A stretch of 64,000 bases of DNA, taken from positions 1 to 64,000 of the IMG/VR virus record IMGVR_UViG_3300031746_002125; one strand, given 5' to 3'. This document shows, in pieces, positions 4,893-62,430 of this stretch (positions are counted from its first letter, which is position 1; each line of letters starts with the position of its first letter). Below the pieces are notes generated by a model. That model saw only the letters and a program-made list of their open reading frames with translations. It was not told the origin of the DNA and ran no database searches. The translations under genes and the position numbers were made by a program. Source of the DNA: a virus.

Positions 4893-4894
4893 TT

Positions 4895-5026
4895 TTATTC
4901 TCCGTCAGTGGCTATAATTATATCAATAATTGGATGATCTTCTCCGACAGGATATCCAATGAAATCTAATAATCCTATTAAACCTCCGCTTTTAGTAATT
5001 CCTGTAAGATATCCAATAAAATCCAT
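4895..5026 (-). CDS. 43-aa protein with DFIGY motif twice
   Basis: MDFIGYLTGITKSGGLIGLLDFIGYPVGEDHP..., tightly packed between neighbours; shares LDFIGYPVG with the N-terminus of the giant gene. Confidence 0.7.
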   Translation of the reverse strand: MDFIGYLTGITKSGGLIGLLDFIGYPVGEDHPIIDIIIATDGE

Positions 5027-5027
5027 A

Positions 5028-5804
5028 TTAATTTGTATCCAATCCAGTAATAGCATCCGCATTAGATGTAGAAGTTATATTTTGAGTATATGCTGTGGTT
5101 GAATCATCTTCTTTAGTAACTGTTAAAACTGTTCCAGAAATAGACCATTTATTCATGAGTTTTCTAATAGCATTTAAAAGTGATCGAGCAGATTCTCCGC
5201 TTACGGCACCCATATCCCTTTTAAGTATAGCATCAGCAATCTCGGTTACAGCATCCGCAGCAAGTTCACTTGCTCCAATTGCATCGGCAGCAATAATATC
5301 AGATGTAATTACATTATTTGCCATTGCTCCAACATGCGCAGGCACTCGTCCACCAATTAAAGTATTAGGCACTCCACCAAAATATAATAGAAGATTAACA
5401 TCAGGAAGTCCAGCATAAACAGGAGCATATAAATTTGTACCCAGCCATTGAACAGCATTTACATCAAGTACATCTCCTCCTCCAATAAATGAATCATAAA
5501 TATTGGCCGAAACTATTTGAAATTCATGCCATACAGGAAGAGCGCCCAGTTCTTGTACTGAAACAAGAAGAATACCAAGAGTATTTGTGTCTGTTGCATC
5601 AAGTGTAAGTTCATACCAACCATTTTCTTCGTGAGAAAGTGTTTGCGCAGCATTCTTCTGTGCCCAGTTTCCAGAATTTTTCTTCAAACGGATATCTGGT
5701 TGAGTAAGAGTAAGAGCAGTTTCCGCTGTAAATCCATCACTACTATCTAAAAATGGACCAATCCCTACATCTACTGATGTTGATTGTTTTAACCATAAAG
5801 CCAT
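5028..5804 (-). CDS. Putative virion structural protein
   Basis: 258-aa ORF in the structural operon with RBS. Confidence 0.7.
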   Translation of the reverse strand: MALWLKQSTSVDVGIGPFLDSSDGFTAETALTLTQPDIRLKKNSGNWAQKNAAQTLSHEENGWYELTLDATDTNTLGILLVSVQELGALPVWHEFQIVSANIYDSFIGGGDVLDVNAVQWLGTNLYAPVYAGLPDVNLLLYFGGVPNTLIGGRVPAHVGAMANNVITSDIIAADAIGASELAADAVTEIADAILKRDMGAVSGESARSLLNAIRKLMNKWSISGTVLTVTKEDDSTTAYTQNITSTSNADAITGLDTN

Positions 5805-6047
5805 TTAAATTCTCCTTTGACGAAATTGATGCATCGAACGAGGGGCTTGGCTTTGACCCCCAAGAACTCGACTAGAATTATCCGTAATAGTAACTGTGTC
5901 AGAAAGAAATAGTGTAAGTATAAAACCAATATCAAGATCTATTTCTACCCACGGGTTACGATCATAAGTATATGTATCACCCGCGCGAAAATCTTCGGCG
6001 TCGGCGTCCCCCAATCTAATACTAGAATTGTGTCCGTCCCCAGCCAT
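5805..6047 (-). CDS. Small virion-associated protein, apparent continuation of 6062-6589
   Basis: RBS GAGGGAG; HNSSIRLGD..NPWVE. Confidence 0.6.
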   Translation of the reverse strand: MAGDGHNSSIRLGDADAEDFRAGDTYTYDRNPWVEIDLDIGFILTLFLSDTVTITDNSSRVLGGQSQAPRSMHQFRQRRI

Positions 6048-6061
6048 TAGATAACTCCCTC

Positions 6062-6589
6062 TTAACCAACAGGGTCGCCCCCCATACCTATCTCAATAAC
6101 CAAACGATCACCAGCTTGGGTTGTATAAGAACCAGCACTACAAAAAACACCATCGGCATCATTAATAGCTCTACTCTGAAAAAGAGTATCGCTCGCTTCA
6201 AGATAATCTCTTGTTACATTTAAAAGTGTTCTTCTAACGGTCGTTCCATTGCTTGCGATTATTCTAATCCCAAGTGTAAAAAACATATTATTACTAGGGT
6301 TAGTTTGTATAACCCTACAAACCGCATTTATTTTTACTAAAGGTGTATCTACTTCTCCAAAATCCCACGTTATACCAGCAACAAGCGGGGGAGATATATA
6401 TTGACGAAATAATATATCTTTATTAGTAAGATTTGAATCAGAGAAAGAAACTGTAGTCATTGCTAATCCACGTTTTGAAGTTCCACACAAACATCTTGCT
6501 AAAATAGATATGTCTTCCCACCCCGAATCTGGGGCAGGAGAAATAGGAACCGTTTCAGCGGCGGCACTTAAATATAAACGAGTGGCCAT
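6062..6589 (-). CDS. Putative virion structural protein
   Basis: MATRLYL...GDRLVIEIG; structural operon context. Confidence 0.7.
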   Translation of the reverse strand: MATRLYLSAAAETVPISPAPDSGWEDISILARCLCGTSKRGLAMTTVSFSDSNLTNKDILFRQYISPPLVAGITWDFGEVDTPLVKINAVCRVIQTNPSNNMFFTLGIRIIASNGTTVRRTLLNVTRDYLEASDTLFQSRAINDADGVFCSAGSYTTQAGDRLVIEIGMGGDPVG

Positions 6590-6592
6590 TTA

Positions 6593-7018
6593 TTAACTCA
6601 CAGTAAGAGTCCAGGTAATTTGAAGAGTATCCGCAGCACCTTTAACAAGAGCAGAAAAAGATGCAGACATCCACATATTACCGTTAGACGAAGCGTCAAA
6701 TATACCAGCTTCAGTTAATGTTCCAGTCCCATCTCCCGCAGCCCAATCTCCAATCATTGTTACAATTGCACCAGATCGAGTTTTACTTGTAAGAGCATTA
6801 CGATCAATTTCCGCTCCCAAAAGAGTGGCCCCTGGCGAACCTGTTCCAATTGCCATCCATCCTGGTTTTGGTAGAGTCGGGGTAGTTAAAATTTGATCCG
6901 CAATTCCATTTTTGCCTGCTGTTGTAACAGTATTGTGAACACTTTCATGTTTTATCCTACCATCGGGACTACGAAGTATAATGTGTACATTAGCTTTTAA
7001 TTTTATTTCTTCTATCAT
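6593..7018 (-). CDS. Tail/baseplate-type structural protein
   Basis: MAIGTG..LGAEIDR..GTLTEAGIFDASSNGNM resembles phage tail-associated proteins. Confidence 0.7.
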   Translation of the reverse strand: MIEEIKLKANVHIILRSPDGRIKHESVHNTVTTAGKNGIADQILTTPTLPKPGWMAIGTGSPGATLLGAEIDRNALTSKTRSGAIVTMIGDWAAGDGTGTLTEAGIFDASSNGNMWMSASFSALVKGAADTLQITWTLTVS

Positions 7019-7033
7019 ATAATCTCCATATAC

Positions 7034-7966
7034 TTATACACATTTATTCTCCATCCAAATTTTATAATCTGTGTCACTTTTTGATGAGTTGCATGATTTG
7101 CACATTAAATTCAAATTTTGTAAACAAAATAAATCTATAATTTCTCGTTCTGTCTTCGCTCTTTCTAGTGGAATAACATGATCTATTGATACGGTGCAAT
7201 TTTTATAATCGGTTTGACACATAGGACATTTATTTTCTTGCAGTTTTCTGGTATTTTCAAGATAATTATACAATTCTATTGGAGTATAATCTAAGTTTCT
7301 AAAACAGCCTTTTATTTTTATATTATTGTTTTTTGATATTTTATTGAAGGCGATCCAAATACGACTTCTCAAATTATCTGCAAATTTTTTAATAGGATTT
7401 TTACGATACTCTCTAATCCTTTTATTTTTATCTTTTCTTTGTTCTTCCTTCAGAGAATGTCTAATTGTTGAATCATTGCATTTTAAACAATGATGCATTT
7501 TGTCTTTATAATAATGTATTGTTTCTCCATGAATTTGGCACAAACTTAAAACCTTGCTGTTCGATATTTTTTTAATTATATTTTTTTGAGGCACTCCTTG
7601 AGAAGCTATTGCGGTTTTTAAACCCAGTTTCGATGCCGTTGAACTTATAGCCCTTTTCGTCCTATTAAGATTCTTCATACAAAATCTTGTGCCATGAAAC
7701 GGATAATTAATTTTTAAAAATTCCATTTCGTCTTTTGTCCAGCAATTTTTATTTAATCCCGCATTTGCTTTATTTCTTTGTATTGTTTTTTCATTTTTAA
7801 AACATCCGCAACTTTTGGAATGACCATTCTTTAAATGACCACTTGTTACTATTGTTTTATTGCCACAATCACACAAACAAAGCCATTTAGGAACCCCCCT
7901 TTTTGTTCTGCCAACATATTCAATTGGTGTTAATCTATTAAATTTTTGTCCAACTAAATTCTCCAT
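7034..7966 (-). CDS. HNH homing endonuclease
   Basis: N-terminal WLCLCDCG..SCGC; C-terminal CPMC..SIDHVIPL..NLNLMCKSCNSSK. Confidence 0.85.
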   Translation of the reverse strand: MENLVGQKFNRLTPIEYVGRTKRGVPKWLCLCDCGNKTIVTSGHLKNGHSKSCGCFKNEKTIQRNKANAGLNKNCWTKDEMEFLKINYPFHGTRFCMKNLNRTKRAISSTASKLGLKTAIASQGVPQKNIIKKISNSKVLSLCQIHGETIHYYKDKMHHCLKCNDSTIRHSLKEEQRKDKNKRIREYRKNPIKKFADNLRSRIWIAFNKISKNNNIKIKGCFRNLDYTPIELYNYLENTRKLQENKCPMCQTDYKNCTVSIDHVIPLERAKTEREIIDLFCLQNLNLMCKSCNSSKSDTDYKIWMENKCV

Positions 7967-8557
7967 CTAGAGCGTCTCCCAAAAACTTATCGAGTAACGA
8001 TCTTCCCGAAGCCCCACAGGAATCGGTCCCTGAATCAATCTCACTCGAAGTTTCAAAATTTCCTCTATGTCGTGGTTAACTATGGCGTATTTACATCGCA
8101 CAAGATCTGGCACGTCTGTTAGGAAAGTTTTCAAACGAACTACTCCCTCGGTTTTTTGAACAGAAATTCCAAAATTTTTCATTTCTACAGGAGCCCATTT
8201 AATTAACGCTTTAATACATTTAGCATTTTCTCTTTCAAGGAAGCCAACAGATTTACAATATGGACACTTTTGTCCGCGAGAGAAGGAAACAGGTCCACCA
8301 ATCTTATAAATTCCTGTTGATCTATTTCCTACAACGTCAAAAGTACAATTTGTACATGGTTCTATAATAGGATCAAATATCAAATAGACATTCTTTCCTA
8401 GTTGATTAATTAAAGCATCTATGCGAGACTGATAAATTTGTATAAGGTCATCGCTTATTTGTATCGAGGCATTGGGATCAAGAGCGGGACAAGAAATTTC
8501 TGGGGCTGGTTGTGATCCACGTATGTTTAAATTTAAATTATTTGTTAGTATTGCCAT
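7967..8557 (-). CDS. Putative head-completion protein with CxxC pairs
   Basis: Downstream of capsid genes; CTNC and CPYC. Function inferred from position. Confidence 0.5.
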   Translation of the reverse strand: MAILTNNLNLNIRGSQPAPEISCPALDPNASIQISDDLIQIYQSRIDALINQLGKNVYLIFDPIIEPCTNCTFDVVGNRSTGIYKIGGPVSFSRGQKCPYCKSVGFLERENAKCIKALIKWAPVEMKNFGISVQKTEGVVRLKTFLTDVPDLVRCKYAIVNHDIEEILKLRVRLIQGPIPVGLREDRYSISFWETL

Positions 8558-8566
8558 TAAACACGT

Positions 8567-9118
8567 TTAATATCTTCTATTTACTCTCTCAATTGGTAAT
8601 GCAAGTTGATCGTAGAACCACGCGACAGTAGAAATAGCACTATCACTAGGACCACGATATGCGCCCAAAACAGCTTTGCCAACTAATGCACTTGAGGCGG
8701 CGGTTAATTTATTAATTAATAATTCGTAGGATTTACATGGGCCTAATTTGAGGATGTCGGCGTAGCCTGCGAAACTCACAGACGTTGTAATTTGGGTATC
8801 TCCGTCGCGTATACTTACTCCTTGAGACAAAGCTATTCTAAAATCAGATTGATTTAAAAGACAACTTGCTTTTAGTGGCAACAATGCCTGAACTTGAATA
8901 TCCCCCAATATTATCGGATCTGGGACAATGGTAACGCCAGTAATATCAAACACATAATTATTACTTAAATCTATTTCATTAGAAACAAGAACTCCTGCCG
9001 TAATTAAAATTTTCTTGAGATAGATGTCAGTGTTCTTTTGTGGCAAATTTAAATCGCCGATCAATACTCTCAATATAGTTACCAAGTCTACGTCCCAACT
9101 CATTTTATATGTCTCCAT
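8567..9118 (-). CDS. Putative head-tail adaptor
   Basis: ILRVLIGDL..TD..L N-terminus resembles connector proteins; probable start at MSWDVD. Confidence 0.55.
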   Translation of the reverse strand: METYKMSWDVDLVTILRVLIGDLNLPQKNTDIYLKKILITAGVLVSNEIDLSNNYVFDITGVTIVPDPIILGDIQVQALLPLKASCLLNQSDFRIALSQGVSIRDGDTQITTSVSFAGYADILKLGPCKSYELLINKLTAASSALVGKAVLGAYRGPSDSAISTVAWFYDQLALPIERVNRRY

Positions 9119-13421: not shown

Positions 13422-15200
13422 TTAATACAAAGGATAGATATAACGGAATTTGGGAGAAATCGCAATTTTAATTAGATCTCTTTCTTCAGCAAGTTGTTTT
13501 TCTGATTTATCAACATTTTTTATTCTTCGGCAACATGATTTGTGTTTTAATTGATTATCAGACGGATCAAAATAAGAATAACTATTAGAAGTTTTACCGG
13601 CCTTTTGCCATCCAGACATTCTATAGATTCCACCATTATGACCAACGGATGTATCGGCATAAGAAACCAATGTTTTAATATCTTTCATATTATTTCTTAT
13701 ATAATTTATACAAAGATTTATAAATGTAGATCCATACGGTCTTATTACATAAAATGGGACGCACAATCTTGTTAATTCCAATATATTTTTATCAAGATTT
13801 TTATTTGCTCCTCTCCCAAATGTTGCAATTCCGGTGATAATATTGCCAATTCTTGCAACCAATATCGTTGAGGCATTTGGTATTGTTCCAAGATAGTGTT
13901 CATATCTGATTGTATTTTTAATTTCGTCTCTTTGGCCTTTAAATAAAATAGATTTCGACGCATCAATTTTGCCACCAGAATTAAATAATAACGTATCATT
14001 TTCTGTCAAGCTAGAATTATTTAAAGCGTATTCGGGGAAAGCTTTCCATATTCTCCACCATGGATGTCCATTTAAATCAAATTTTTCTATTTCTTTATGT
14101 TCAGATTCGAGAATTACTAAGCCATTATTTTCATCATAAAATCGTTCGTCATGGTATACGGCTAACTTTTGAATATGTCCCTCTAAAGGTTTGTGTTTTG
14201 TTTCAACAGTTTTTAATATTATAGAAAATGGAATAATGTGATGACAGTGTAAATGTCCACCCATTTTAGATATTTGGCTTTTATAGTCATATTTATTAAA
14301 TAAATTTGTTCTCCAGTTAATATAATTAGAACCATGTCTAACCATATCTGCTATTTCAGTAATTCCACCTTTCCAATTCCAGTTATTTTCTCCTATGTTT
14401 TTTCTTGTTTCCTTATTTATAGATTCAAATCTTTTCTGTGTAAACCCCCTATTTTTATTAAAATGTTTATCTATTAACTCCAGTGTCATACCAAGATCAT
14501 CATACATTTTAATTAATTCTTGATCTGTTATATGGCTTGTCCCCTTGTTTTTTCTACTAGTTTCTGATAAAGATCTTGTTCCTTTGCCAGATTCTATAAG
14601 CCTACTTTTAACAAATGTTACACTTTTATTAATAATTTTTGAAATTGCAAGAGCATCTAGTCCATTGTTCCAATATAGGTCTACGACTTGTTCTATTGAT
14701 ATATCCTTACATCTATTTTGTTCCCACGGTTTCCTTATTTTAATATTTAATTTTTTTAATTTTCTTTTTATGGTATTGCCTGATGTGTTAAATTTTTTGC
14801 CTATCTCTATTAAAGATTTTTGTTGATCAACATATAAATTTATTAATATATCGTTATTAATTAGATCTGTCTTATGGGACTTTTCTTGTGCCATGGAACA
14901 ACCTCTTGTATTCTTGTGGGAGTCTTTTAAAATTCTATTTATTAAACCAACACTCCTGCCTAATTTTTCTGCTGTTTGTTTTAAAGTTAAACCTTGTTTC
15001 CAATATAGTTCGATAACCTTTTCTTCTTCTGGAATATTTTTACGCTCAATAACAGGTTTAACATTTATGCCAAGTTTTTTTAATCTTCTGCTAACACAAG
15101 ATTCGCTAACTTTTAAAAATTTTGCACAATCTCTTCCAGATAGAGAATCTTCTACATACAATTTTAATAAAAGTTTTTCATCTACGTCAATGATTTTCAT
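13422..15200 (-). CDS. Tandem HTH + HNH + Mom-like GNAT fusion
   Basis: About five HTH repeats; NWKGGIT..HCHHIIPF..NNGL HNH; HYL..ELTRL..LVSYAD..GH.GGIYR.SGW Mom-like motifs. Confidence 0.75.
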   Translation of the reverse strand: MKIIDVDEKLLLKLYVEDSLSGRDCAKFLKVSESCVSRRLKKLGINVKPVIERKNIPEEEKVIELYWKQGLTLKQTAEKLGRSVGLINRILKDSHKNTRGCSMAQEKSHKTDLINNDILINLYVDQQKSLIEIGKKFNTSGNTIKRKLKKLNIKIRKPWEQNRCKDISIEQVVDLYWNNGLDALAISKIINKSVTFVKSRLIESGKGTRSLSETSRKNKGTSHITDQELIKMYDDLGMTLELIDKHFNKNRGFTQKRFESINKETRKNIGENNWNWKGGITEIADMVRHGSNYINWRTNLFNKYDYKSQISKMGGHLHCHHIIPFSIILKTVETKHKPLEGHIQKLAVYHDERFYDENNGLVILESEHKEIEKFDLNGHPWWRIWKAFPEYALNNSSLTENDTLLFNSGGKIDASKSILFKGQRDEIKNTIRYEHYLGTIPNASTILVARIGNIITGIATFGRGANKNLDKNILELTRLCVPFYVIRPYGSTFINLCINYIRNNMKDIKTLVSYADTSVGHNGGIYRMSGWQKAGKTSNSYSYFDPSDNQLKHKSCCRRIKNVDKSEKQLAEERDLIKIAISPKFRYIYPLY

Positions 15201-46645: not shown

Positions 46646-46896
46646 TTTTCGGACCATAGGCTTCGAATTATCGGACGGCATATAACTACCACACCCTTAT
46701 CGGACCTAATTGGCCAGACGCCAATTATAGGACCGCCCATTATCGGACGAGCATATAGAGAAGGTTATCGGGCTTATACTTATAGGACGTGGACGCGGGG
46801 AGGGAAAAAGATTATGGGAGCACGGGATATAGGACTATACATTATGGGACGATGTGCCGCTCGTGCCGATGCCAAAAACATGCTCGGTTATCGGAC
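46646..46896 (+). repeat. Array of 9-mer TTATCGGAC-type direct repeats
   Basis: Copies at 46646, 46668, 46697, 46725, 46740, 46765, 46780, 46812, 46827, 46842, 46888. Confidence 0.9.
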
Positions 46897-46918
46897 GATA
46901 AAAATTTTTTATTTTCGT

Positions 46919-46946
46919 TTGCTTACCTGCGATTCTATTCTACAAT
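46919..46946 (+). promoter_or_regulatory. Sigma70-type promoter
   Basis: TTGCTT-16-TACAAT with an AT-rich UP element. Confidence 0.6.
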
Positions 46947-47214
46947 TAGGTTGGCAATAGGGCCGACAAGGAGAAGAAAATGGTACTAGGAATAACAATC
47001 GGAACGGGCGCGGTGGTGATGATGGTGATTATGATGATTAAGACCAGCTTAGAAAATGCTGGCAACACCTACGGGCGGCGGAGCGTTTGCGGACGTTCGG
47101 CTCGGTGGAACAGGAGGGTGCGATAATGTTTACAATGATCGGACTAGGATTTCTCATGGTGGTTATCGGAGCGGTGAAGGTGTGGTGGGAATTATCGGAA
47201 TAAAGGAGAGCTTT

Positions 47215-47370
47215 ATGTGGACGCTAGTTATCTGGACATCGCCGAACGACAGCGCATCCTACGATTATCGGACGAGAATGGAAGCGTTGGCTATCGGACG
47301 TAATTGCATCGACGCCTATGCAGTTGAATTATACGGACCTGACGGCGAGTATGAAGGATTTTCGGACTAG
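47215..47370 (+). CDS. Small early protein
   Basis: AAGGAG RBS; MWTLVIWTSP; preceded by two short hydrophobic ORFs. Confidence 0.6.
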   Translation: MWTLVIWTSPNDSASYDYRTRMEALAIGRNCIDAYAVELYGPDGEYEGFSD

Positions 47371-47381
47371 GAGGTGCTGTG

Positions 47382-47621
47382 ATGATGAAAGCAACACTTG
47401 AAGTTTTCTGGCCAAGCGACCCAACATTTTCGGACGCTGACAAGGTTTCGCGGTACGATAATCTTTGGGACGATTGTGTGATGATAGACGCGAGAATAGC
47501 AGCCCTTTGTGGTGGACACGCCATCGCGACACTATCGGACGGCTACCGGGTCGAATACATCTCGGACGATTGCGAGCCGACTGGTTATCGGACTAAAGGC
47601 GTACCATGTGAAACGGTCTGA
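47382..47621 (+). CDS. Small early protein
   Basis: AGGAGGT RBS; followed by a terminator. Confidence 0.7.
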   Translation: MMKATLEVFWPSDPTFSDADKVSRYDNLWDDCVMIDARIAALCGGHAIATLSDGYRVEYISDDCEPTGYRTKGVPCETV

Positions 47622-47638
47622 TTATCGGACGAAGGACC

Positions 47639-47663
47639 GGGCCGAATTATCGGCCCTTCTTTT
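47639..47663 (+). terminator. Intrinsic terminator
   Basis: GGGCCGA-ATTA-TCGGCCC-TTCTTTT. Confidence 0.8.
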
Positions 47664-47677
47664 GCGCTGATCGGTTT

Positions 47678-47868
47678 GGTCCTATAAAAATCACTGCTTG
47701 TAAAATCGTAACTTAACTGCGAATTATGGGACCAGGCATATATTACTTCGTTTATGTGCGTTTCCTGCGGGATGTTATCGAATCATGCAAATAATATCGA
47801 AGAATTCCTATAATAATTGAGACATTATCATTAAAAATCAACATTTTATTGGCCTATCCTCGTATAAT
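47678..47868 (+). repeat. ~190-bp degenerate non-coding repeat, copy 1 (others ~49074-49276, ~49824-50030)
   Basis: Shared blocks GGTCCTATAA, AAATCGTAA..AACTGC, TATATTA(A)CTTCG, AATAAT, ATAATAA..ACAT. Confidence 0.85.
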
Positions 47869-47873
47869 ATATT

Positions 47874-48389
47874 ATGGGAACTATCCGGGAAATAAAGGTT
47901 ACAGGACGTAATTATGAATTATCGGTCCTTGTCGATGAAGAAGATTATCAGACGTTAAGGTTATGGGAATATGGTTTGTCCAGAATTATAGGACTTGATA
48001 CAACCTACATACAGACTTATAAAAAGGGCAAAAGGGGTTATCTCCATCGTCTTATTATGGGGGTTTCGGACGCGACAACGTCCATTTTCGTAGATCATAT
48101 TGACCATAATGGGCTTAATAATTCTAGGACCAACCTACGTATTACCAATAATAAGGGTAATCAGCGCAATTCGCGCAAACGATTATCGACAAAACGAACA
48201 AGCTCCTATAAAGGAGTTTATTTTTCTCACAATAATAAGATGAACCCCTGGTTAGCATCCATTCATCTATCGGACAGTAGAACACATCTGGGATATTATA
48301 GGACCGAAATAGAAGCGGCTCACGCCTATAATAAGGCCGCTATCGAGCATTTCGGCGACATGGCCAACCCGAACATTCTCGGACCATAA
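47874..48389 (+). CDS. HNH-AP2 homing endonuclease
   Basis: YLHRLIMG..VDHIDHNGLNNSRTNLR; SSYKGV..W.A.I..LG..EAA.AYNKAA. Confidence 0.9.
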   Translation: MGTIREIKVTGRNYELSVLVDEEDYQTLRLWEYGLSRIIGLDTTYIQTYKKGKRGYLHRLIMGVSDATTSIFVDHIDHNGLNNSRTNLRITNNKGNQRNSRKRLSTKRTSSYKGVYFSHNNKMNPWLASIHLSDSRTHLGYYRTEIEAAHAYNKAAIEHFGDMANPNILGP

Positions 48390-48417
48390 AATTTTTCAGA
48401 TTTTTATTATTTGGACC

Positions 48418-48446
48418 TTGACTTTTGTATGGTTCCCGCCTATACT
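48418..48446 (+). promoter_or_regulatory. Sigma70-type promoter
   Basis: TTGACT-17-TATACT. Confidence 0.85.
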
Positions 48447-48501
48447 CCTACAGTAGTACGGGACAACGAAATGATGTTTTTTTCGGACGGGGGAAAGGGC
48501 G

Positions 48502-48807
48502 ATGAAAAGGCCGCTATTATCAGACGACATGGTGGATATGAAGTTAGCTAGTCTGGAAAAATTGCAGTATCGCTTGGAATTAACGGGGCCGATAATGTTC
48601 TGGAAAGCAGAAGTGATCGGACCATTCGGCTCGGAGTTTTTCGGACGGTCCAGTAACGGGCCAACGACCGATAAAGCTATCGAGCGACTTAAATTGCAGC
48701 TTGAACGAATCGGGTTTATCGGACTACTGATTGAAAGCCCGATAATCGGAAAAGATTATTCGGACGACGATCTGTTATCGGACGAAGAAGTCCCTGACGA
48801 GTTATAG
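48502..48807 (+). CDS. Small early protein
   Basis: ORF downstream of the promoter; acidic tail. Confidence 0.65.
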   Translation: MKRPLLSDDMVDMKLASLEKLQYRLELTGPIMFWKAEVIGPFGSEFFGRSSNGPTTDKAIERLKLQLERIGFIGLLIESPIIGKDYSDDDLLSDEEVPDEL

Positions 48808-48826
48808 GACGATAAGGGGGTGTAAA

Positions 48827-49027
48827 GTGTTGCTGAAAAAAAGAACGTATTTCTTGACGAATGTTATCGGCGAATCTTGTTTGGTCCGAGTATTCGTTGC
48901 GACGGCAAACGCAAACATCGTCTTTATGGGACGCCAGAATTTCCTTCCGATAAGACGTGCCTTTTCCGAGCAAGGGGAAACGACATTAGCGGACGATGAC
49001 GAGGGCGAAGAGTGGAAAGACCGATAA
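48827..49027 (+). CDS. Small early protein
   Basis: AAGGGGG RBS; ends DDDEGEEWKDR. Confidence 0.6.
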   Translation: MLLKKRTYFLTNVIGESCLVRVFVATANANIVFMGRQNFLPIRRAFSEQGETTLADDDEGEEWKDR

Positions 49028-49300
49028 ACTAGCGGGACAAAGAAGTTATAGGACTAGGGAACCGATCGGCCTTGGTCCTATAATTTGCGCCTACGGCACA
49101 GTTATAGGACTCCCTTATAATGTTAAAATCGTAATTAAACTGCTTTTTATAGGACGTGGCATATATTACTTCGCCTGCGAGCGTTTCCTTCGGGACATTC
49201 TAGGATCATGCCAATAATAACGAAACTGCCCATAATAATAAAGACATGCCGATTGAAAAACGATATATTATCAGACTAAAAGATTTTCTTGTCGGGCGAC

Positions 49301-49329
49301 TTGACTTCGGCGGTCGGCTTGCATATAAT
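49301..49329 (+). promoter_or_regulatory. Sigma70-type promoter
   Basis: TTGACT-17-TATAAT. Confidence 0.9.
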
Positions 49330-49402
49330 TCAATATGACCGAACGCGATAGCCTATAGTGTTATGGGCGAGCGTAAAGTCGATCCATTATAGGAGCTCCA
49401 AT

Positions 49403-49735
49403 ATGTCGGCAACCGCAGTAGTTTCAAGCCCAGTAACCACCAGCAAAGTTCACGAAAAGGAATTTTTGACGACCGCGCAGGACTACGCGCGTGACCGCAA
49501 GGGCATAGATTGGCTATCGTCCCAACCCAACCCAGACGAGGCTATCGACCGCGTTATGAAGGTTATTGGCCGCCTTCAGAATATGGTTGCCAACGGTTCG
49601 GACTATACTCCAGCCGCGCAGCTCGGCTTCGGGTCCGCTAACGCCTCAACCATCGCGTCCGGTATTCTCGGCGCAGGCTTGACGGGTTCGCAGATTCGCA
49701 AGCTGTTCGCAACCGTAGGCAAGCCGAAGGCATAA
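49403..49735 (+). CDS. Monocistronic GC-rich early protein (110 aa)
   Basis: Own promoter, AGGAG RBS, own terminator. Confidence 0.8.
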   Translation: MSATAVVSSPVTTSKVHEKEFLTTAQDYARDRKGIDWLSSQPNPDEAIDRVMKVIGRLQNMVANGSDYTPAAQLGFGSANASTIASGILGAGLTGSQIRKLFATVGKPKA

Positions 49736-49769
49736 TTTTCGGACCTCGACGACTTATCGAGGAACGAAT

Positions 49770-49808
49770 TATCGGACGGGAGACGCGGGTTTCTCGTCCG
49801 ATATTTTT
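49770..49808 (+). terminator. Intrinsic terminator
   Basis: TATCGGACGGGAGAC-GCGG-GTTTCTCGTCCGATA-TTTTT. Confidence 0.85.
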
Positions 49809-50030
49809 GCGCGGATTTATATGGTCCTATAATTTTCACTGCATGGTAAATCGTAAAATAACTGCAATTATAGGACGTGGATTATATTAACTTCGTTTGT
49901 GCAAGATTTTCTAAGACATTCTCGGATAATACCAATAATATCAACTATGCCTATAATAAAGAGAACATATCGATTGAATAAATAGATATTATAGGAATCC
50001 CATAATTTTTATTGGGTTCGGACGTATAAT

Positions 50031-50129
50031 TATAGGACCGAAGAAGAAGCGGCAACAGCCTATAATAAAGCAGCTATCGAATTATTCGGACCTATTGCCT
50101 TCCTCAATATATTACCGGACCAAAAATAA
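50031..50129 (+). pseudogene. 3' remnant of an HNH-AP2 gene
   Basis: Translates YRTEEEAATAYNKAAIELFGPIAFLNILPDQK*, versus YRTEIEAAHAYNKAAIEHFGDMANPNILGP in 47874; no start codon. Confidence 0.85.
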
Positions 50130-50155
50130 TTTTTTTGATTTCTGGTTATAAGACC

Positions 50156-50184
50156 TTGACATTTCGGTTCTGCAAGCATATAAT
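50156..50184 (+). promoter_or_regulatory. Consensus sigma70 promoter
   Basis: TTGACA-17-TATAAT. Confidence 0.9.
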
Positions 50185-50391
50185 ATAATAGTATTTTCGG
50201 ACAAAAGAAGGTTGATCTGGACGAGTTTTCGGACGACGGGAAGATGGGCGATATGCGCACTTTTTCTTCTTATAGGACTAATTATTAGGACTACGATTTT
50301 ATCGGAGGTTCCATATAATTTCTGTCTTGGCATCGTATTATTCAAAGACTTATCGGGTGGTGCCAATAATCATTTTATTTTACCCAAAGGC

Positions 50392-50420
50392 TTGACTATC
50401 GTTGACTACGAGCATATAAT
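50392..50420 (+). promoter_or_regulatory. Sigma70 promoter of the ncRNA candidate
   Basis: TTGACT-17-TATAAT. Confidence 0.9.
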
Positions 50421-50424
50421 TAGA

Positions 50425-51048
50425 TAGCCGAATGCGCAGCGACCCGATAACTTCGGGAACGGTCGATAATTCGACCCGATATAGGCTTATTATATGCCAT
50501 AAGCCCGCACGGTTCGGTTAGTCTGATAAGGGCGAGTAGCGCAAGGTAAAGTAGTTCTTTACTTGAAGCGCCAGCGAAGGGTTTTGTTATCGGCCCTGAC
50601 TTCGGGCAATGCCCGATAAAAGGTTCTCATTCGGACGGGAGCGTCCGATAAGGACGGAAGCCCGATAATAAGTCCGCGCTATCTAGGGCGCACTCCCTAG
50701 TGAGAGTCCGATAAGTTGTTCGGACAAGGGCGCAAGTCCCCTAGTCAGTCCCATAATCAATTCATGGAAGTCTCCCGACAAGAGCAGAATTAAAGTGGGG
50801 TCTCAACTGGTTATCGGCGGCGCGTCTGTCAACCCGAATAACTTGGGCGATAACTAAGTTCTTATCGGTCCAACGGATTCTCGAAGTATTATTGAAGCGA
50901 TACTCCTTCCATTGAAGCTATGGTCAAGTCTTGTGCAACGATTCGCTCGCGTAATTATCGGGTCTTGTAAGCAAGTCAAAGCTTACTTCGGTCTATTGTC
51001 GAGCGATAGTGTGAGACTTCAATCGCTGGTGGATGCCGCTTTCGGCTA
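50425..51048 (+). ncRNA. Large structured ncRNA candidate (~620 nt), family unassigned
   Basis: Starts 4-5 nt after the -10 box; no ORF of 60 aa or more; GC-enriched; complementary ends; >10 hairpins and long-range helices. Confidence 0.75.
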
Positions 51049-51360
51049 AGGTCGATTGTTCGGGTTCGATAACTGGTCAATAATACTCAAACCAACTTTC
51101 AATTCAAAGGGCATGATTATCGGATGAAGTTTTGGTCCGAAAAGATTCTGCCCTTCTCGTCCAATAACTCTCCAGTCCAAAAGCTACGACCCATAAATAA
51201 GGGCAAAAACACGGGAAAAGGTCAAAGTCCAAATAAAGAAAAACTGCCTGCAATTTTTTCGCAGAGTCAGAATCTTTTTTGGATCAATGAGATTTCCGGG
51301 GTCCGGCTCTTTTTAGAGCTCCTTGGGTTTGCGCCAGGATTCGCGGTATTATTGGATGTT

Positions 51361-51434
51361 TTCCGTATAAGTGTAATGGTAGCACACTTCTGGGCATACC
51401 GGAAGAAGTCTAGGTTCGACCCCTAGTACGGAAA
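51361..51434 (+). tRNA. Atypical tRNA-like RNA with CAT-centred enlarged anticodon loop
   Basis: TTCCGTA/TACGGAA acceptor; D arm GTG-TAATGGTAG-CAC; CTTCT-GGGCATACC-GGAAG; T arm CTAGG-TTCGACC-CCTAG. Confidence 0.7.
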
Positions 51435-51465
51435 ATTATTATTGGGCTTCGTCGTATAATGGTTC

Positions 51466-51918
51466 ATGGGATCGGTCTGTCTAAAACACAACAAAGAAAG
51501 AGACGCTTCAAGGCATTGTCCAGAATGTCGCAAAGATTATACCCTTAGTGAAAAGGGACGTAAGGCGATTACGGAGTACGAAAATTCCAAAAAGAGAAAA
51601 GAGTCCAAAAAAAGAAACAGGTCAACCGATAAAACAAAGTACTCGGACGGACAAAGACAAAGGGAATACCTCAATACACCAGAAGGAAGGTTGAAGTACG
51701 GAGCAAGAAACTCTGTACATTACGCAATCAAAAGGGGTAACTTAACCAAGCTCCCCTGTCAAATATGTGGGAACCCAAAGTCCGAGGCCCATCACTATCT
51801 AGGTCATTCCAAGGAACATAGATTACATGTAGTGTTCCTCTGCAAAAAGCATCATTACCAAGCCGACCACGATCCGGCCTTTAACGAAACTCTCAAACCA
51901 GACGGCCTCATCGTCTAA
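51466..51918 (+). CDS. HNH-like endonuclease ending inside tRNA-Glu
   Basis: PCQICG..SEAHH..V.FLCKKHH..H. Confidence 0.8.
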   Translation: MGSVCLKHNKERDASRHCPECRKDYTLSEKGRKAITEYENSKKRKESKKRNRSTDKTKYSDGQRQREYLNTPEGRLKYGARNSVHYAIKRGNLTKLPCQICGNPKSEAHHYLGHSKEHRLHVVFLCKKHHYQADHDPAFNETLKPDGLIV

Positions 51919-51976
51919 TTGGCTAGGATAGTACCCTTTCAAGGTACAGATACGAGTTCGAGTCTCGTTGAGGCTA
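51904..51976 (+). tRNA. tRNA-Glu(TTC)
   Basis: GGCCTCA/TGAGGCT acceptor; GTACC-CTTTCAA-GGTAC; ACGAG-TTCGAGT-CTCGT; no encoded CCA. Confidence 0.92.
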
Positions 51977-52015
51977 TAAACCAATGTTCATTTTTTAAGA
52001 GGAGGTCTGCGCAAA

Positions 52016-52183
52016 ATGAAAGTAGTTATGTCAGTGAATGTAGGAAAATACGGAGAGGGCAAGGTAGTTGAAATTGTCCAAGCGGCTTCGGACTGGGTAA
52101 GGACCAAGAAAGGAACGTATCTGCAAAAGGACTTCGTTCGAGAAATTGGAGGAAATTCGATAGGGAAGGAAGTTGTGATCTAG
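52016..52183 (+). CDS. 55-aa hypothetical protein
   Basis: AGGAGGT RBS; MKVVMSVNVGKYGEG... Confidence 0.65.
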   Translation: MKVVMSVNVGKYGEGKVVEIVQAASDWVRTKKGTYLQKDFVREIGGNSIGKEVVI

Positions 52184-52207
52184 AGTCGCGTTCCGTCCGC
52201 GATTCGT

Positions 52208-52320
52208 TTGCTGTGAGTGTGTGTCGGAGTCATAATTTAGATTCCGGAAGGATAGACACGTCACGCGGTCGGGCTCCGTACCGACCAGTGAAATTAGTTG
52301 TTCGATTCAACTACAGCAAA
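52208..52320 (+). ncRNA. tRNA-like RNA with expanded D arm and 8-nt anticodon-position loop
   Basis: TTGCTGT/ACAGCAA acceptor; AGTTG-TTCGATT-CAACT T arm; GGTCGG-GCTCCGTA-CCGACC arm; nested D-arm helices. Confidence 0.7.
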
Positions 52321-52350
52321 TTATTATTGGACAAGTTAGTATAATGTCTC

Positions 52351-52914
52351 ATGGAAGAGGTATGTCCGGTCAAAACAAGGGAAATCAAGTTGGGCGGAAG
52401 CAAGGGTCTGTCTACAATAGTCGATGAATCGGACTTTGTTTCCCTCAATCTTGGTTCATACCGATGGTGCCCAACGGTAAGTCCCACCTTGACGTATGCG
52501 GTAGCCAATAACGGAAAACGTCAAGTAATCTATCTCCATCGTCTGATAATGGGACTTATAAGTGGTCCTCGGTCTGTGTGCGTAGACCACATCGACCACA
52601 ACGGTCTCAATAATTCCAGAAGCAATCTGCGCATAACAAACCAAAGCGGGAATATGAGAAACGTGCGCAAAAAATATGCAAACAAAAGCGCTTCTCCTTA
52701 TAAGGGAGTTACACGGAGATTAAAAGCCAAATCAAATCCGTGGAAAGCGAAGATTCGACAAGGAAACAAAACCAAACACCTTGGAGTCTATCCAACAGAA
52801 ATCGAAGCGGCACAAGCATATAACAAGGCGGCGATCGAACTTTTCGGCGAGTTCGCGTGTCTAAATAAACTCCCCTGGTTGAAAAGGAGAAGCCATGAGT
52901 CGTGTCTACAATAA
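52351..52914 (+). CDS. HNH-AP2 homing endonuclease
   Basis: VDHIDHNGLNNSRSNLR; YKGV..WKAKI..LGVY..EAAQAYNKAA. Confidence 0.9.
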   Translation: MEEVCPVKTREIKLGGSKGLSTIVDESDFVSLNLGSYRWCPTVSPTLTYAVANNGKRQVIYLHRLIMGLISGPRSVCVDHIDHNGLNNSRSNLRITNQSGNMRNVRKKYANKSASPYKGVTRRLKAKSNPWKAKIRQGNKTKHLGVYPTEIEAAQAYNKAAIELFGEFACLNKLPWLKRRSHESCLQ

Positions 52915-53356
52915 GTTAGAGAATCCGGCTTTACAGTTCTCTCTTTTACATAGAGTGGGGAGAGAATTTTGTGAAAGGGTAGTAAAAGGAAAAAGATTCA
53001 AGGAAGATAGTCTGACCGAGATTGCTGGTAACGGCGTGTATGGGTTTCAAAGCAGAAGACAAAAACGAGAGGTATCCTCGATGGTTCAAACAATTGACGG
53101 AACCGGACTCAAGAAGGCGAAGAAAACTGCTTGTAAACCAAGGAAAGAGGTTTGCAAATTAGTAACCAGTTTTCAGGCATATTGGGCAAGTCTCGATCCC
53201 GAAGAGAAGAAGCGGAGAAAAGACGAGCAGGACAAAAGAATTAGGGCTAGGAACAGAAACAGAAGGGCGATATACGGGCGTCGAAAAGTTGTTGTATTCA
53301 CGACCAACCAAACCAGAGGAAAGAGAGGTGGATTAACAACTACTCCCAGGACTTAA
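52895..53356 (+). CDS. Basic hypothetical protein
   Basis: AGGAG RBS; K/R-rich. Confidence 0.6.
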   Translation: MSRVYNKLENPALQFSLLHRVGREFCERVVKGKRFKEDSLTEIAGNGVYGFQSRRQKREVSSMVQTIDGTGLKKAKKTACKPRKEVCKLVTSFQAYWASLDPEEKKRRKDEQDKRIRARNRNRRAIYGRRKVVVFTTNQTRGKRGGLTTTPRT

Positions 53357-53857
53357 ATCATTAAGAATACCGAAATCACACAATTCTATAACAGCTTCGT
53401 TATAGGCTTTCGCCGCTTCTTTCTCTGTCCGAAAACTTCCTAGATATTTATTTTTTCCATCTATCCTAATACACGCCTGCCAGGGTTTTAATTTGCTATG
53501 AATGGTGTGTCGGGAAACACCCTTGTATCTCGAAGAAGTTTTCAATAATGTTTTATGACAATTGCGAGAGTTGCCGCTATTATTAGTGATTCGCAAATTG
53601 TTCTTTGAATTATTGAGACCATTATGGTCTATATGATCGACATAAACAAAACAGGGCGAATTTACAACTCCCATGATAAGACGATGTAAATACACATTTT
53701 TGTCCTTTTTATAGGTTATAATATATGTCGTCTTATATCCCGGTATCCTACTCCACGAGTATTCCCACAGCCGAAGTCTCCAATAGTCCTCTTCGTCCAC
53801 GAAGGTAGTCACTTCATAATCACGTCCATACACCTTCATTTCCCGAATTTGTTCCAT
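53333..53857 (-). CDS. HNH-AP2 homing endonuclease, paralog of 47874
   Basis: VDEEDY..LRLWEY; VDHIDHNGLNN; AP2 domain. Confidence 0.9.
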   Translation of the reverse strand: MEQIREMKVYGRDYEVTTFVDEEDYWRLRLWEYSWSRIPGYKTTYIITYKKDKNVYLHRLIMGVVNSPCFVYVDHIDHNGLNNSKNNLRITNNSGNSRNCHKTLLKTSSRYKGVSRHTIHSKLKPWQACIRIDGKNKYLGSFRTEKEAAKAYNEAVIELCDFGILNDLSPGSSC

Positions 53858-53929: not shown

Positions 53930-54002
53930 GGCCCGTTAGTTTAATAGCTTAAAACCGCTACCTTATAAGTAGCAGAACACGGAGCGTAACCGTGACGGGC
54001 CA
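53930..54002 (+). tRNA. tRNA-Ile(TAT) with atypical D and T loops
   Basis: GGCCCGT/ACGGGCC; GCTAC-CTTATAA-GTAGC; CACGG-AGCGTAA-CCGTG. Confidence 0.8.
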
Positions 54003-57027: not shown

Positions 57028-57124
57028 TGGCCGTTAGCTTAAAGCTTCCGAATGGTACGCCCATCGGACGGTAAAGCCTCGGATGATTACCGGGAGATTA
57101 TGGGTTCAAATCCCATACGGCCAA
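57028..57124 (+). tRNA. tRNA-Ile(GAT)-like RNA with a 22-nt hairpin in the D loop
   Basis: TGGCCGT/ACGGCCA; GCTT/AAGC D stem; CTCGG-ATGATTA-CCGGG; ATGGG-TTCAAAT-CCCAT. Confidence 0.8.
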
Positions 57125-60577: not shown

Positions 60578-62430
60578 TAATAATTTTGTAAATGCAATAA
60601 TCCATAAGGGGAAAAGGAGTTCGATGTTTATGTCCCAGAATAAACCAGTTCTTGTAGATCATAAAGAACACGGTAAGGGGCTCGTGATAACCACAAATCA
60701 AGCGGAAGACAAAAGCACAAGAATATTTATTGTGTGGCAAGATGTGGAACAGTCATCCGCTTTGTGTGGGTGGTATATCTTTAATGAAACAGATTTCATA
60801 AAGGATTAAAAATGTATTTCTTAATTTGGATTTTTGAAACTTGTGAACCGGGTCGATGTTATGGGCCGATGGAGTTAATGGAATGCGATAATAAACTTCG
60901 TCAATATGCTCAAGAAGAAATTAAAAATGGAAATCTATTGGATGAATACGCAGAAGAATATCGGTATATCAATTCTAACAATGGAGAAGGATGGTACATC
61001 ATTAAATCAGAGGAGATATAATATGAATTCTGGTGAAATAGCAAAAAGAAACGCATACAGAGAAGGAGATACCATTGCCATTTATGGAAATGCGTATCGT
61101 ATAACCAAAATTTTTGAAACAGAAGTTTTTGGAATCCAAGTAGTTGAAAATGGTGGGTGTGTGTTAAGTAGTACGAATTATTTGTTAGATTTAAGGTTAG
61201 ATGGGTGGAGGCTTGTTATATCATGAAAATAGAAATGCCCAATACTGCAAAAAAAGTTCCCGTAGATTCAATTATGATTGGACAGTGTTTTCTTCATGGC
61301 GACGAAGTTTATATGAGAACTGATGGATCGTTCTCTGGCGGTGATGGTTGTTATTCTATTAGAATAGTTAGACTTTTAGACGGAGCAGAAGATGGCCTGC
61401 AAGCAGATGCCCAAGTAGTGCCAATAAAAATGAAATGCGTAAAAGATTGTTAATTAGCTTAGTCTGGTTAAAGCGCGATTCTTATAAAATCGAGACCAAT
61501 GGTTCAAATCCATTACGGCCTATTTTAATAACTCATCTTCTATTTCCATATGACAATTAGAACAAAGTAAATCACACTAAAAAGGAGATATTTCATGTTT
61601 GAAGTCTACGACAACGGAAAATTGGCTAGTCATTTGTACCAGGACGTTGATAACAGTTGGGAGCATCCTGAATGTGAAACCTTTGAAGAAGCCCAAAGAT
61701 ATTGTAAAGAATGGTTGGGAAACTATTCTTCATTGTGTCCAACCGAACCCAACAAAGTAGTTGACTATTCGGGATGTGGAGATACAATAGAAATAAGGAA
61801 AATAAAATGATAGATGAACAATTGGAAGTTGGTACATTAGTTAAAACAATGTCAACGGATGGTAAAATATGTTTGTATGGTAGAATTAAAGAAATAAAAG
61901 AAGATTTCTATTATATCAGAGTTAATCCTGAGTACCACTATCATGCCGAAGTTATTGTAAGATATGTAAATGAAATAATCTTTTGTCGTGGACCTAATTA
62001 TCTTCTTTGAACAAAAAGGATTTCCGGGAATACGAGAATATAAAATGATCCTACCAACATATGCAAATAAAGACCACCCGGTTTTTATGACAAAGACGGC
62101 GAGGCGGCTTTTGTAGGTGTGGAAGATGAATCAGGATTTTATGTTTATTCTCTGTCTGGAAAGTTGCTGGCAAGTAATCCGTCGAGAGAAGTCTTCGAGA
62201 AAATCGTTGACATTTACATATAGGAAAATAAAATGATAGCATTTACATTAACCAAAGAAAGTCTTATTTTACACGAGGACAATCGTTACATTCCCGGTCT
62301 ACGAAGATTCGTGGAAGATGTAATAGGTCTTAGGGCACCGGGTCCAGTCTTTAATCATTTTTTTATAAACACAAAAGAAGATTATCTTCGCATCAAAGCG
62401 TGGTTAGTAGCAATGGGGGAAATAAAATGA
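60567..62430 (+). other. Small hypothetical CDSs (60567-60809, 60812-61021, 61023-61226, 61223-61453, 61595-61810, 61807-62010, 62233-62430)
   Basis: Coupled plus-strand ORFs. Confidence 0.6.
61448..61522 (+). pseudogene. tRNA-Ile(TAT) lacking a matching 5' acceptor strand
   Basis: Intact D arm GCTT-AGTCTGGTTA-AAGC, CGATT-CTTATAA-AATCG and AATGG-TTCAAAT-CCATT; 3' ACGGCCT has no partner. Confidence 0.75.

Follow-up and report, generated by a model that had tools for sequence, protein, structure and literature searches.

The question raised by this locus is whether a long non-coding stretch in the genome of an uncultured phage, lying between a strong promoter and a group of transfer RNA (tRNA) genes, encodes a large structured RNA and, if so, what kind of RNA it might be. 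The DNA analysed (hereafter the window) comprises 64,000 nucleotides (nt), positions 1 to 64,000 of IMG/VR virus record IMGVR_UViG_3300031746_002125. An earlier note, made from the sequence alone, had singled out positions 50425-51048 as a candidate novel, highly structured RNA of ~620 nt. Comparison with natural variants indicates that this interval makes up most of a plus-strand non-coding gene, and that the fold of its 3′ 440 nt is kept by compensatory substitutions. We consider it very probable that the locus is a real structured RNA element. The explanation that best accommodates all of the observations is a structured non-coding RNA gene acting in trans, of the GOLLD/ROOL kind, although we regard this as an evenly balanced call. 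That the product is a free-standing, trans-acting particle is proposed more tentatively still.

As the earlier note had claimed, the proposed RNA would begin directly after a sigma-70-type promoter (TTGACT-17-TATAAT, positions 50392-50420, plus strand), which matches the consensus at 11 of 12 positions with a spacer of 17 base pairs (bp). The promoter is unchanged in the two natural variants described below, L070 and L071, and is thus the same in 3/3 sequences. Four sigma-70 promoters of this kind lie within 2 kilobases (kb), at 48418, 49301, 50156 and 50392. Upstream of the promoter at 50392 is a motif-type promoter-like site (50299-50319, plus strand), consisting of a copy of the dispersed 10-nt motif discussed below, a 6-nt spacer and TATAAT. 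The same note had described the interval as free of open reading frames (ORFs), enriched in guanine and cytosine (GC) and placed upstream of tRNAs, and all three descriptions hold. The longest ORFs within 50425-51048 are 45 amino acids (aa) on the plus strand and 41 aa on the minus strand. GC content is 0.50 at 50501-51000 compared with ~0.26-0.37 over most of the window, the neighbourhood at 46.5-58 kb already being at 0.38-0.50. The first gene 3′ of the candidate is a tRNA-Met (CAT; 51360-51435, plus strand) identified by ARAGORN, and a tRNA-Glu follows at 51904.

The ORF-free stretch after the promoter extends for ~940 nt, reaching tRNA-Met at 51360, and can be divided into three parts, all on the plus strand. 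Module A (50427-50724) is made up of successive short hairpins with many copies of the antisense motif GUCCGAUAA, module B (50725-51161) has the covariation-supported fold, and an A-rich tail (51162-51359) leads to tRNA-Met. A hairpin in the tail (51305-51320, plus strand) retains its pairing through two double changes in L071, as judged by eye from the alignment. The body of the RNA would therefore measure ~730 nt (50427 to ~51161) and the whole non-coding unit 730-930 nt. A 100-aa ORF at 51124-51426 was rejected as a gene, as it overlaps the tRNA and its frame is disrupted by 1-2-nt indels in L070 and L071.

The evidence that carries the case for a structured RNA comes from these two variants, both metagenome contigs, which were found with an exact 24-nt pattern; the same approach gave 0 matches in viral contigs. 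L070 matches 50299-51368 at 86% identity and L071 matches 50299-51201 at 83%, and the three sequences differ by indels of 1-3 nt, which speaks against a coding role. From 50740 onward, segments exist as two alleles that are 64-72% identical and are shared in changing pairs, so that the three-variant alignment is a mosaic. RNAalifold was applied to 50725-51206 of the window, L070 and L071. Of the 128 predicted pairs, 26 were compensatory, meaning that they had changed on both sides and were still paired. Only 1-3 compensated pairs were counted in six slid controls, in which partners were moved by 1-3 columns, and shuffled alignments gave 9.4 ± 2.3, with 0/500 reaching 26. Overall, 95.3% of cells were paired on the predicted structure, and 16-18 of the 128 pairs were G-U on the plus strand. 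Module B thus carries compensatory pairs beyond those produced by the controls, as would be predicted of a structured RNA. The rapid but compensated turnover of sequence suggests that the shape of this RNA matters more than its sequence.

These counts bear directly on the possibility that the stretch has no function, being a junk spacer of decayed motif copies and mobile-element scars that folds by chance. Such a spacer would agree with the presence of an HNH fragment just upstream (50029-50110), with content that varies among close strains and with a module B that is no stabler than motif-preserving shuffles (see below). It would not be expected to yield 26 compensated pairs against 1-3 in controls, to keep a consensus promoter intact in 3/3 variants, or to have a structured equivalent in phages that share only 57-62% terminase identity. 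We consider this explanation extremely unlikely.

Three helices of the plus strand are best supported. The helix 50885-50896/51076-51087 has 12 pairs, six of them compensated, and spans 200 nt; 50908-50936/51009-51033 has 23 pairs, with eight compensated; and 50943-50954/50996-51006 has 11 pairs, with four compensated. The consensus fold of module B also contains the helices 50738-50749/50806-50817 and 50966-50971/50982-50987 and a hairpin at 51107-51155, likewise on the plus strand. Not all of the structure proposed in the earlier note survives this comparison. That note had the RNA as one ~620-nt element whose ends, at 50425 and 51041, pair in a terminal helix; in the variants, the 5′ arm of this helix is invariant, while its 3′ arm is altered in L070 and deleted in L071, and structure continues beyond 51048 with the 12-pair helix and the hairpin at 51107-51155. 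A proposed helix between 50767 and 51013 is lost in the variants, and strand 51008-51018 pairs with 50929-50939 instead, with compensation. Another, between 50809 and 50848, is lost in L071, and strand 50806-50817 pairs with 50738-50749 instead. In contrast, the helix between 50943 and 51000 (TCGCTCG/CGAGCGA) is maintained in the variants with four compensatory pairs, and the hairpin at 50967 is maintained with one. The claim of a highly structured RNA therefore stands for the 3′ half, where compensatory changes back the fold, and falls for the terminal helix as well as for two out of three long-range helices.

The position of the candidate is shared with RNAs of related phages. The order in this slot is the end of a motif-studded early operon, a small ORF with an LGFGS motif, a large structured RNA and tRNA genes; the window RNA occupies the same position as the G002 type, following the LGFGS ORF and the motif cluster and preceding tRNAs on the same strand. 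In 3/3 distant relatives examined (G002, G004 and G005), a GC-rich stretch of 0.5-1 kb (GC 0.52-0.56) carrying the motif in flipped orientation comes after the motif cluster. The relatives have a sigma-70 promoter (10 of 12 consensus positions in L082), a structured leader (a few hundred nt; alignment A9), an ORF of 105-115 aa that is homologous to 49403-49735 of the window, and then ~0.9 kb without an ORF. A long ORF-free stretch lies downstream of the small ORF at 8/8 loci and is conserved within several sequence types. The ~0.9-kb RNA was located in L082 (3839-4900), L084 (3825-4850), L083, L081, L079, L085 (1518-2300) and L086 (minus strand), and BLAST with the G004 RNA returned three further loci among 20 records.

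Covariation in the relatives is strong. In domain 1 of the G002-type RNA, 18/72 pairs are compensated among seven sequences, compared with 1-3 in slid controls and with 0/500 shuffles reaching this count, and in domain 2 the figure is 25/52. Alifold energies of the relatives are markedly asymmetric between strands (-76.9 vs -43.2 and -33.0 vs -10.2). In L084 a terminator-like hairpin and its T run mark the end of the RNA. A tRNA follows the RNA in L079 (4786-4856), and a tRNA-like stretch lies right after it in G015. Based on these sequence comparisons, the ~0.9-kb RNA of the relatives seems to represent a distinct and so far undescribed family of large RNAs. It resembles the window RNA in position, strand, GC enrichment, flipped motif, helices made of motif and antimotif, and strong covariation.

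Sequence searches did not connect the two. A covariance model of domain 1 built from the seven G002-type relatives (model R1) had no match in the candidate and matched the window only at E 0.56 and 5.5, outside the candidate. Its strong matches were confined to L085 and L086, with L078 at E 0.004, and it matched 0/5 further genomes, two of which carry the small ORF followed by other long, ORF-free and motif-rich sequence. The window-type model (R2) found nothing below E 6.3 in 17 relatives' loci. BLAST of the window RNA against the relatives' RNAs at word size 7 gave motif-sized matches only (10-23 nt, E>=0.23), and blastn of 50380-51360 against five related genomes gave only matches of 13-24 nt (E>=0.07). 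Blocks shared by the window and G004/G005 that were noticed by eye (TCCCATAAYCAAT, CATGGAAG, GTGGGGTC and ATTGTCG...GATAG) were rejected as proof of homology, being without statistical support. An HNH neighbour gene used as an anchor returned eight distant loci, which were set aside since HNH genes are mobile. RNA-bearing slots of the relatives fall into one type comprising G002, G004, G009, G016, L079, L081 and L083, a G005/G011 type and a G015 type. As judged from their sequences, the slot thus holds at least four types (G002-like, G005/G011, G015 and that of the window), which have either diverged past recognition or arisen separately.

The small ORF that marks the slot lies at 49403-49735 (plus strand, 110 aa) in the window and has 11 homologues with a mean column identity of 57%. 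It has its own promoter (49301-49329, plus strand) and is followed by a terminator-like hairpin (49770-49803, plus strand). As a single query it found no relatives; an alignment of four small-ORF sequences was needed as a profile, and this fetched eight loci. Neither Pfam (for 49403-49735) nor PHROG (for the longer GTG-start form, 49358-49735) gave a match. The protein family measures 105-126 aa, has invariant GFGS, T-P and Y residues and always adjoins a large RNA. An AlphaFold2 model from the 11 sequences is helical but of low confidence, with a mean predicted local distance difference test (pLDDT) score of 57.3 and a predicted template modelling (pTM) score of 0.31. It is possible that the LGFGS protein is a partner of the large RNA. 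In the relatives, the RNA directly follows the small ORF and may be on one transcript with it and with the structured 5′ leader; in the window, a terminator, repeats and an HNH remnant separate the two, and the RNA is preceded by a consensus promoter of its own. One homologue, in the complete relative G011 (L088, 549-872, minus strand), contains a single in-frame TAG, which could be a sequencing error, a pseudogene mutation or a case of recoding.

A dispersed 10-nt motif links the candidate to the 3.7-kb early operon upstream. Its consensus, aaTTATCGGACg, was derived from a logo of 49 copies, and the array at 46646-50283 contains 49 T-N-GGAC copies, on the plus strand only. From 46.6 to 50.3 kb there are 7-14 copies per kb on this strand, about one every 75 bp, and they fall inside small ORFs (in all three frames) as well as between ORFs. 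The heptamer CCGATAA occurs 41 times in the window, where 10.7 copies would be expected, nearly all of them in 46.6-51.6 kb. Motif orientation flips at 50.4 kb, where the RNA starts, and flipped copies extend over 50440-51611; at the turn, the plus strand has nine T-N-GGAC copies in 50-51 kb, and the minus strand four in 50-51 kb and six in 51-52 kb. The RNA candidate contains at least nine copies of GUCCGAUAA, the exact complement of UUAUCGGAC, which occurs in ~50 copies in the upstream early messenger RNAs (mRNAs). Many helices of the candidate are built by pairing sense and antisense copies of aaTTATCGGACg, and this accounts for the earlier observation that many of its stems are inverted 9-mers. 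In the supported folds of both the window and the relatives, antisense copies lie mostly within helices, often paired to a sense copy.

Similar clusters are present in the distant relatives. Forward and reverse copies of TTATNGGAC number 24/7 in G002 (control 5/6), 5/29 in G004 (4/1) and 7/20 in G005 (5/2), almost all within one stretch of 3-5 kb (50043-53709, 3659-9103 and 64396-67735, respectively). By this comparison the motif is family-wide, though the local sequences are otherwise unalignable. Eight copies in the window have a hexamer resembling TATAAT or TATATT 5-7 nt further on (47724, 49102, 49147, 49868, 50009, 50299, 51439 and 52324, plus strand). For the copies at 51439 and 52324, an HNH endonuclease gene starts with its ATG 5 nt past the hexamer, which suggests a phage-specific promoter class yielding leaderless mRNAs. 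As a general promoter the motif was rejected, since the logo of 49 copies has no fixed downstream element and ~8 copies have a -10-like hexamer. Candidate roles for the motif include a regulator site, a roadblock array, an RNA processing signal and origin iterons.

With this in mind, two explanations centred on the motif itself were weighed. In the first, the RNA would be a motif-directed regulator whose GUCCGAUAA copies silence early mRNAs by pairing with UUAUCGGAC, or else sequester a protein that recognizes the motif. The orientation flip exactly at the RNA start, its recurrence in G002, G004 and G005, and the family-wide spread of the motif when the surrounding sequences are not shared all argue for such a role. 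However, the antisense copies are mostly in intramolecular helices and not shown in loops, and the motif doubles as an upstream promoter-like element, so that its main role may be on DNA. The data speak weakly for this attractive idea, and we judge it quite unlikely.

The second explanation places the function in the DNA. Here the motif array would be a set of protein sites (origin iterons or a regulator array) or a recombination hot spot, with the hairpins as a by-product. Both strands fold well, recombination breakpoints cluster in the region, and eleven motif copies, 15-62 bp apart, occupy the non-coding stretch 46646-46890, which is the point of divergence of transcription and the minimum of cumulative GC skew. 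The motif array is in keeping with such a role, but the compensated long-range pairs are not. Protein sites need no compensated pairing, and here it is seen between positions up to 200 nt apart; read on the opposite strand, the 16-18 G-U pairs would turn into A-C mismatches; and the fold of the relatives is strongly strand-specific. We therefore consider a purely DNA-level element very unlikely.

A number of results weigh against a structured RNA gene acting in trans and are best considered together. The plus strand of the candidate has a minimum free energy of -226.1 kcal/mol (z -5.0 against dinucleotide shuffles, 0/20 as good), but the minus strand also folds well (z -4.2), and in the alifold of the window clade it is nearly as stable as the plus strand, for which the preference is modest (-106.6 vs -98.5). 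The earlier note had named folding no better than motif-preserving shuffles as a test of the candidate. When every motif copy was held in place (n=200), the whole interval still stood out (z -2.5, 2/200 as good), as did 50425-50724 (z -3.2, 2/200), but 50725-51206 did not (z +0.1, 113/200 as good). Since the signal drops when motif copies are fixed, much of the single-sequence stability stems from inverted copies of one dispersed motif, and thermodynamics alone cannot settle the question. The covariation, for its part, is drawn from three variants with two alleles per segment, so that the 26 compensated pairs represent few independent events, and the structure tested was predicted from the same three sequences.

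Module A adds a further caution. The segment 50386-50724, which contains the promoter and module A, is identical across the window, L070 and L071 except for one substitution, and its flanks diverge (the left flank is 60% identical among the variants). The hairpins listed at 50443-50706 in the earlier note are present with the same sequence in all three, so that covariation speaks neither for nor against the fold of these 5′ ~300 nt. Recombination breakpoints lie at 50384-50386, in a region full of HNH homing endonuclease genes, and this suggests exchange by homing-associated gene conversion; with exchange possibly recent, the identity of module A is not proof of constraint. Contigs of four further runs show similar modularity, with alignments starting at 50384. 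One Logan contig (run X4) joins 50683 to 51199, and others skip or replace parts, with 50908-51062 swapped for 135 other letters in one arrangement, so that modules can occur apart. Further, the argument from a common slot is one of synteny, as covariance models and BLAST do not link the window RNA to those of the relatives. A discrete transcript and the ends of the RNA are predictions. Finally, a convincing intrinsic terminator was not found between 50420 and tRNA-Met at 51360, where there is one weak terminator-like match only, and this would be as compatible with a leader as with a free RNA.

The last point leads to the possibility that the RNA is a structured 5′ leader or precursor of a tRNA operon. 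The promoter at 50392 would then serve tRNA-Met and the following genes, and the fold would act in cis only, in stability, processing order or timing, and be discarded after ribonuclease P (RNase P) cleavage. The tRNA cluster of T4 is transcribed as long precursors that are processed and also give stable RNAs. The lack of a convincing terminator, together with the tRNAs that follow the equivalent region in L079 and G015, is what such a leader would predict. Nevertheless, 0.9 kb with a maintained long-range fold far exceeds the needs of processing. A motif-type promoter-like site directly before tRNA-Met (near 51337-51357) would let the tRNA be made alone, and the RNA of L084 has its own terminator-like end. 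Moreover, the RNA is kept in L070 and L071 where the tRNA-Met stretch is replaced: L070 3367-3450 and L071 9560-9719 (minus strand), aligned to 51360-51435, have a different sequence with no ARAGORN tRNA, so that the gene beside the RNA is exchangeable between strains. For these reasons we rank action in trans above a pure tRNA leader, which we consider unlikely.

Taken together, these analyses are compatible with the following sequence of events for a trans-acting RNA. Host RNA polymerase would make the RNA early and abundantly, and it would fold into a stable, free-standing particle of 0.7-0.9 kb, with a 3′ end that may be produced by RNase P cleavage at the 5′ end of the tRNA. We predict that such an RNA would act in trans as a scaffold or decoy of the GOLLD/ROOL kind and not as a leader or DNA site, possibly together with the adjacent small protein or the phage tRNAs.

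The comparison with GOLLD and ROOL is one of kind. The earlier note could assign the candidate to no family, and this remains the case: cmscan with Rfam 15 over the window returned only tRNAs at the gathering threshold. Relaxing the cutoff to E<=10 over 50000-51500 gave a single match, to PsrR1; it lies at 50126-50196, beyond the limits of the candidate, and scores 19.7 bits against a gathering score of 42. Models for GOLLD (RF01998) and ROOL (RF03087) had no match in the window, in 50000-51500 at E<=10 or in seven relatives' loci at E<=1. OLE, RNase P RNA, transfer-messenger RNA (tmRNA), group I and II introns, HEARO and 6S likewise had no Rfam 15 match, ARAGORN found no tmRNA, and the relatives' RNA had no Rfam match even at E<=1. 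Blastn of 50380-51100 against the cultured phages of INPHARED gave no match.

A recent preprint describes GOLLD as a large, structured RNA encoded by phages and prophages, often beside tRNA islands and with no assigned function, its 3′ region being better conserved and its 5′ region variable; one GOLLD described there adjoins a Met-tRNA (bioRxiv 10.1101/2024.12.08.627333). In the same source, ROOL is a ~600-nt phage or prophage RNA near tRNA islands with no protein partner or function assigned (bioRxiv 10.1101/2024.12.08.627333). As far as these descriptions go, the window RNA is like both in being large, structured, phage-borne and near tRNAs, and with its 730-930 nt it has the location and length of GOLLD (phage or prophage, beside tRNA genes, ~800 nt). 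It differs from GOLLD in having helices built from a motif dispersed in the genome, and neither covariance model matches it. GOLLD is also known to form multimers, whereas the window RNA is known here from its sequence. We therefore treat the likeness as an analogy and not as family membership. In the accessible part of Fremin et al. 2023 (PMC10690425), structured RNA candidates of 29-151 bases were mined from IMG/VR, the same data source, also with covariation evidence in viral intergenic regions; that part describes no large RNA of the present kind, and single hairpins of the locus may be included in the set. A description of the RNA was not found in Rfam 15 or in a non-exhaustive literature search.

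The phage that carries the locus belongs to an uncultured family with genomes of 160-180 kb from sediment and freshwater. The window covers the initial 64 kb of an IMG/VR viral contig that is 72,449 bp long and has a completeness rating of 43%. Its large terminase has 53 relatives in IMG/VR confirmed by tblastn (52 distinct loci), many on contigs of 160-180 kb and some with terminal repeats, and is at most 26% identical to terminases of cultured phages. Near-identical DNA was found in sediment metagenome runs, and among the runs listed for 50300-51500 none is recorded as RNA. Variants are present in runs X2-X8 (shares 0.27-0.58). The block at 46.5-58 kb contains small ORFs, several HNH endonuclease genes and tRNAs. 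Two tRNA matches come from Rfam and are not called by ARAGORN (57028-57124, 97 nt and perhaps with an insert, and 61454-61515), and two ARAGORN tRNAs, tRNA-Met at 51360-51435 and tRNA-Ile(TAT) at 53930-54002, are not in the Rfam list at the gathering threshold. The 82-nt remnant at 50029-50110 shares 73% identity with the 3′ end of an HNH-AP2 endonuclease gene (47874-48389) and is a mobile-endonuclease scar just 5′ of the promoters of the RNA. A repeat unit of ~190 nt occurs in three copies that are 72-79% alike (47660-47850, 49085-49280 and 49805-50000); each holds a flipped motif and a motif-type promoter-like site, and the copies sit after terminators and before genes or sigma-70 promoters, also in L070 and L071. 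Elsewhere in the window, a 592-aa ORF (13422-15200, minus strand) matches a D5-like regulator or HNH endonuclease in its N-terminal part and a Mom-like DNA modification protein in residues 424-591.

A more speculative proposal, which we think improbable, would join the motif and the slot. In this view, one genome position would be a hypervariable RNA slot, filled in different lineages by 0.7-1 kb RNAs that lack detectable homology yet are all built from sense and antisense copies of one 10-nt motif, and the RNA would serve as a multivalent timer of the antisense or decoy type. By pairing with the motif or competing for its reader, it would shut off or retune the whole early operon, and its fast, compensated turnover would be the outcome of an arms race or of tuning within each lineage.

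To our knowledge, large structured RNAs without an assigned function are rare, with GOLLD, ROOL, OLE and raiA as the main examples. Each of these opened new RNA structural biology, including the recent nanocages seen by cryo-electron microscopy. The present locus adds one covariation-supported RNA in the window and at least one well-supported family of ~0.9-kb RNAs in related phages, and its strong sigma-70 promoter should make the RNA easy to express and study in vitro. Should it prove to be only a tRNA leader, it would be an unusually elaborate precursor. For this family of phages, the link to the motif and the presence in one slot of RNAs lacking detectable homology lead to distinct hypotheses, in which the RNA may serve as a decoy, an antisense timer or a scaffold.

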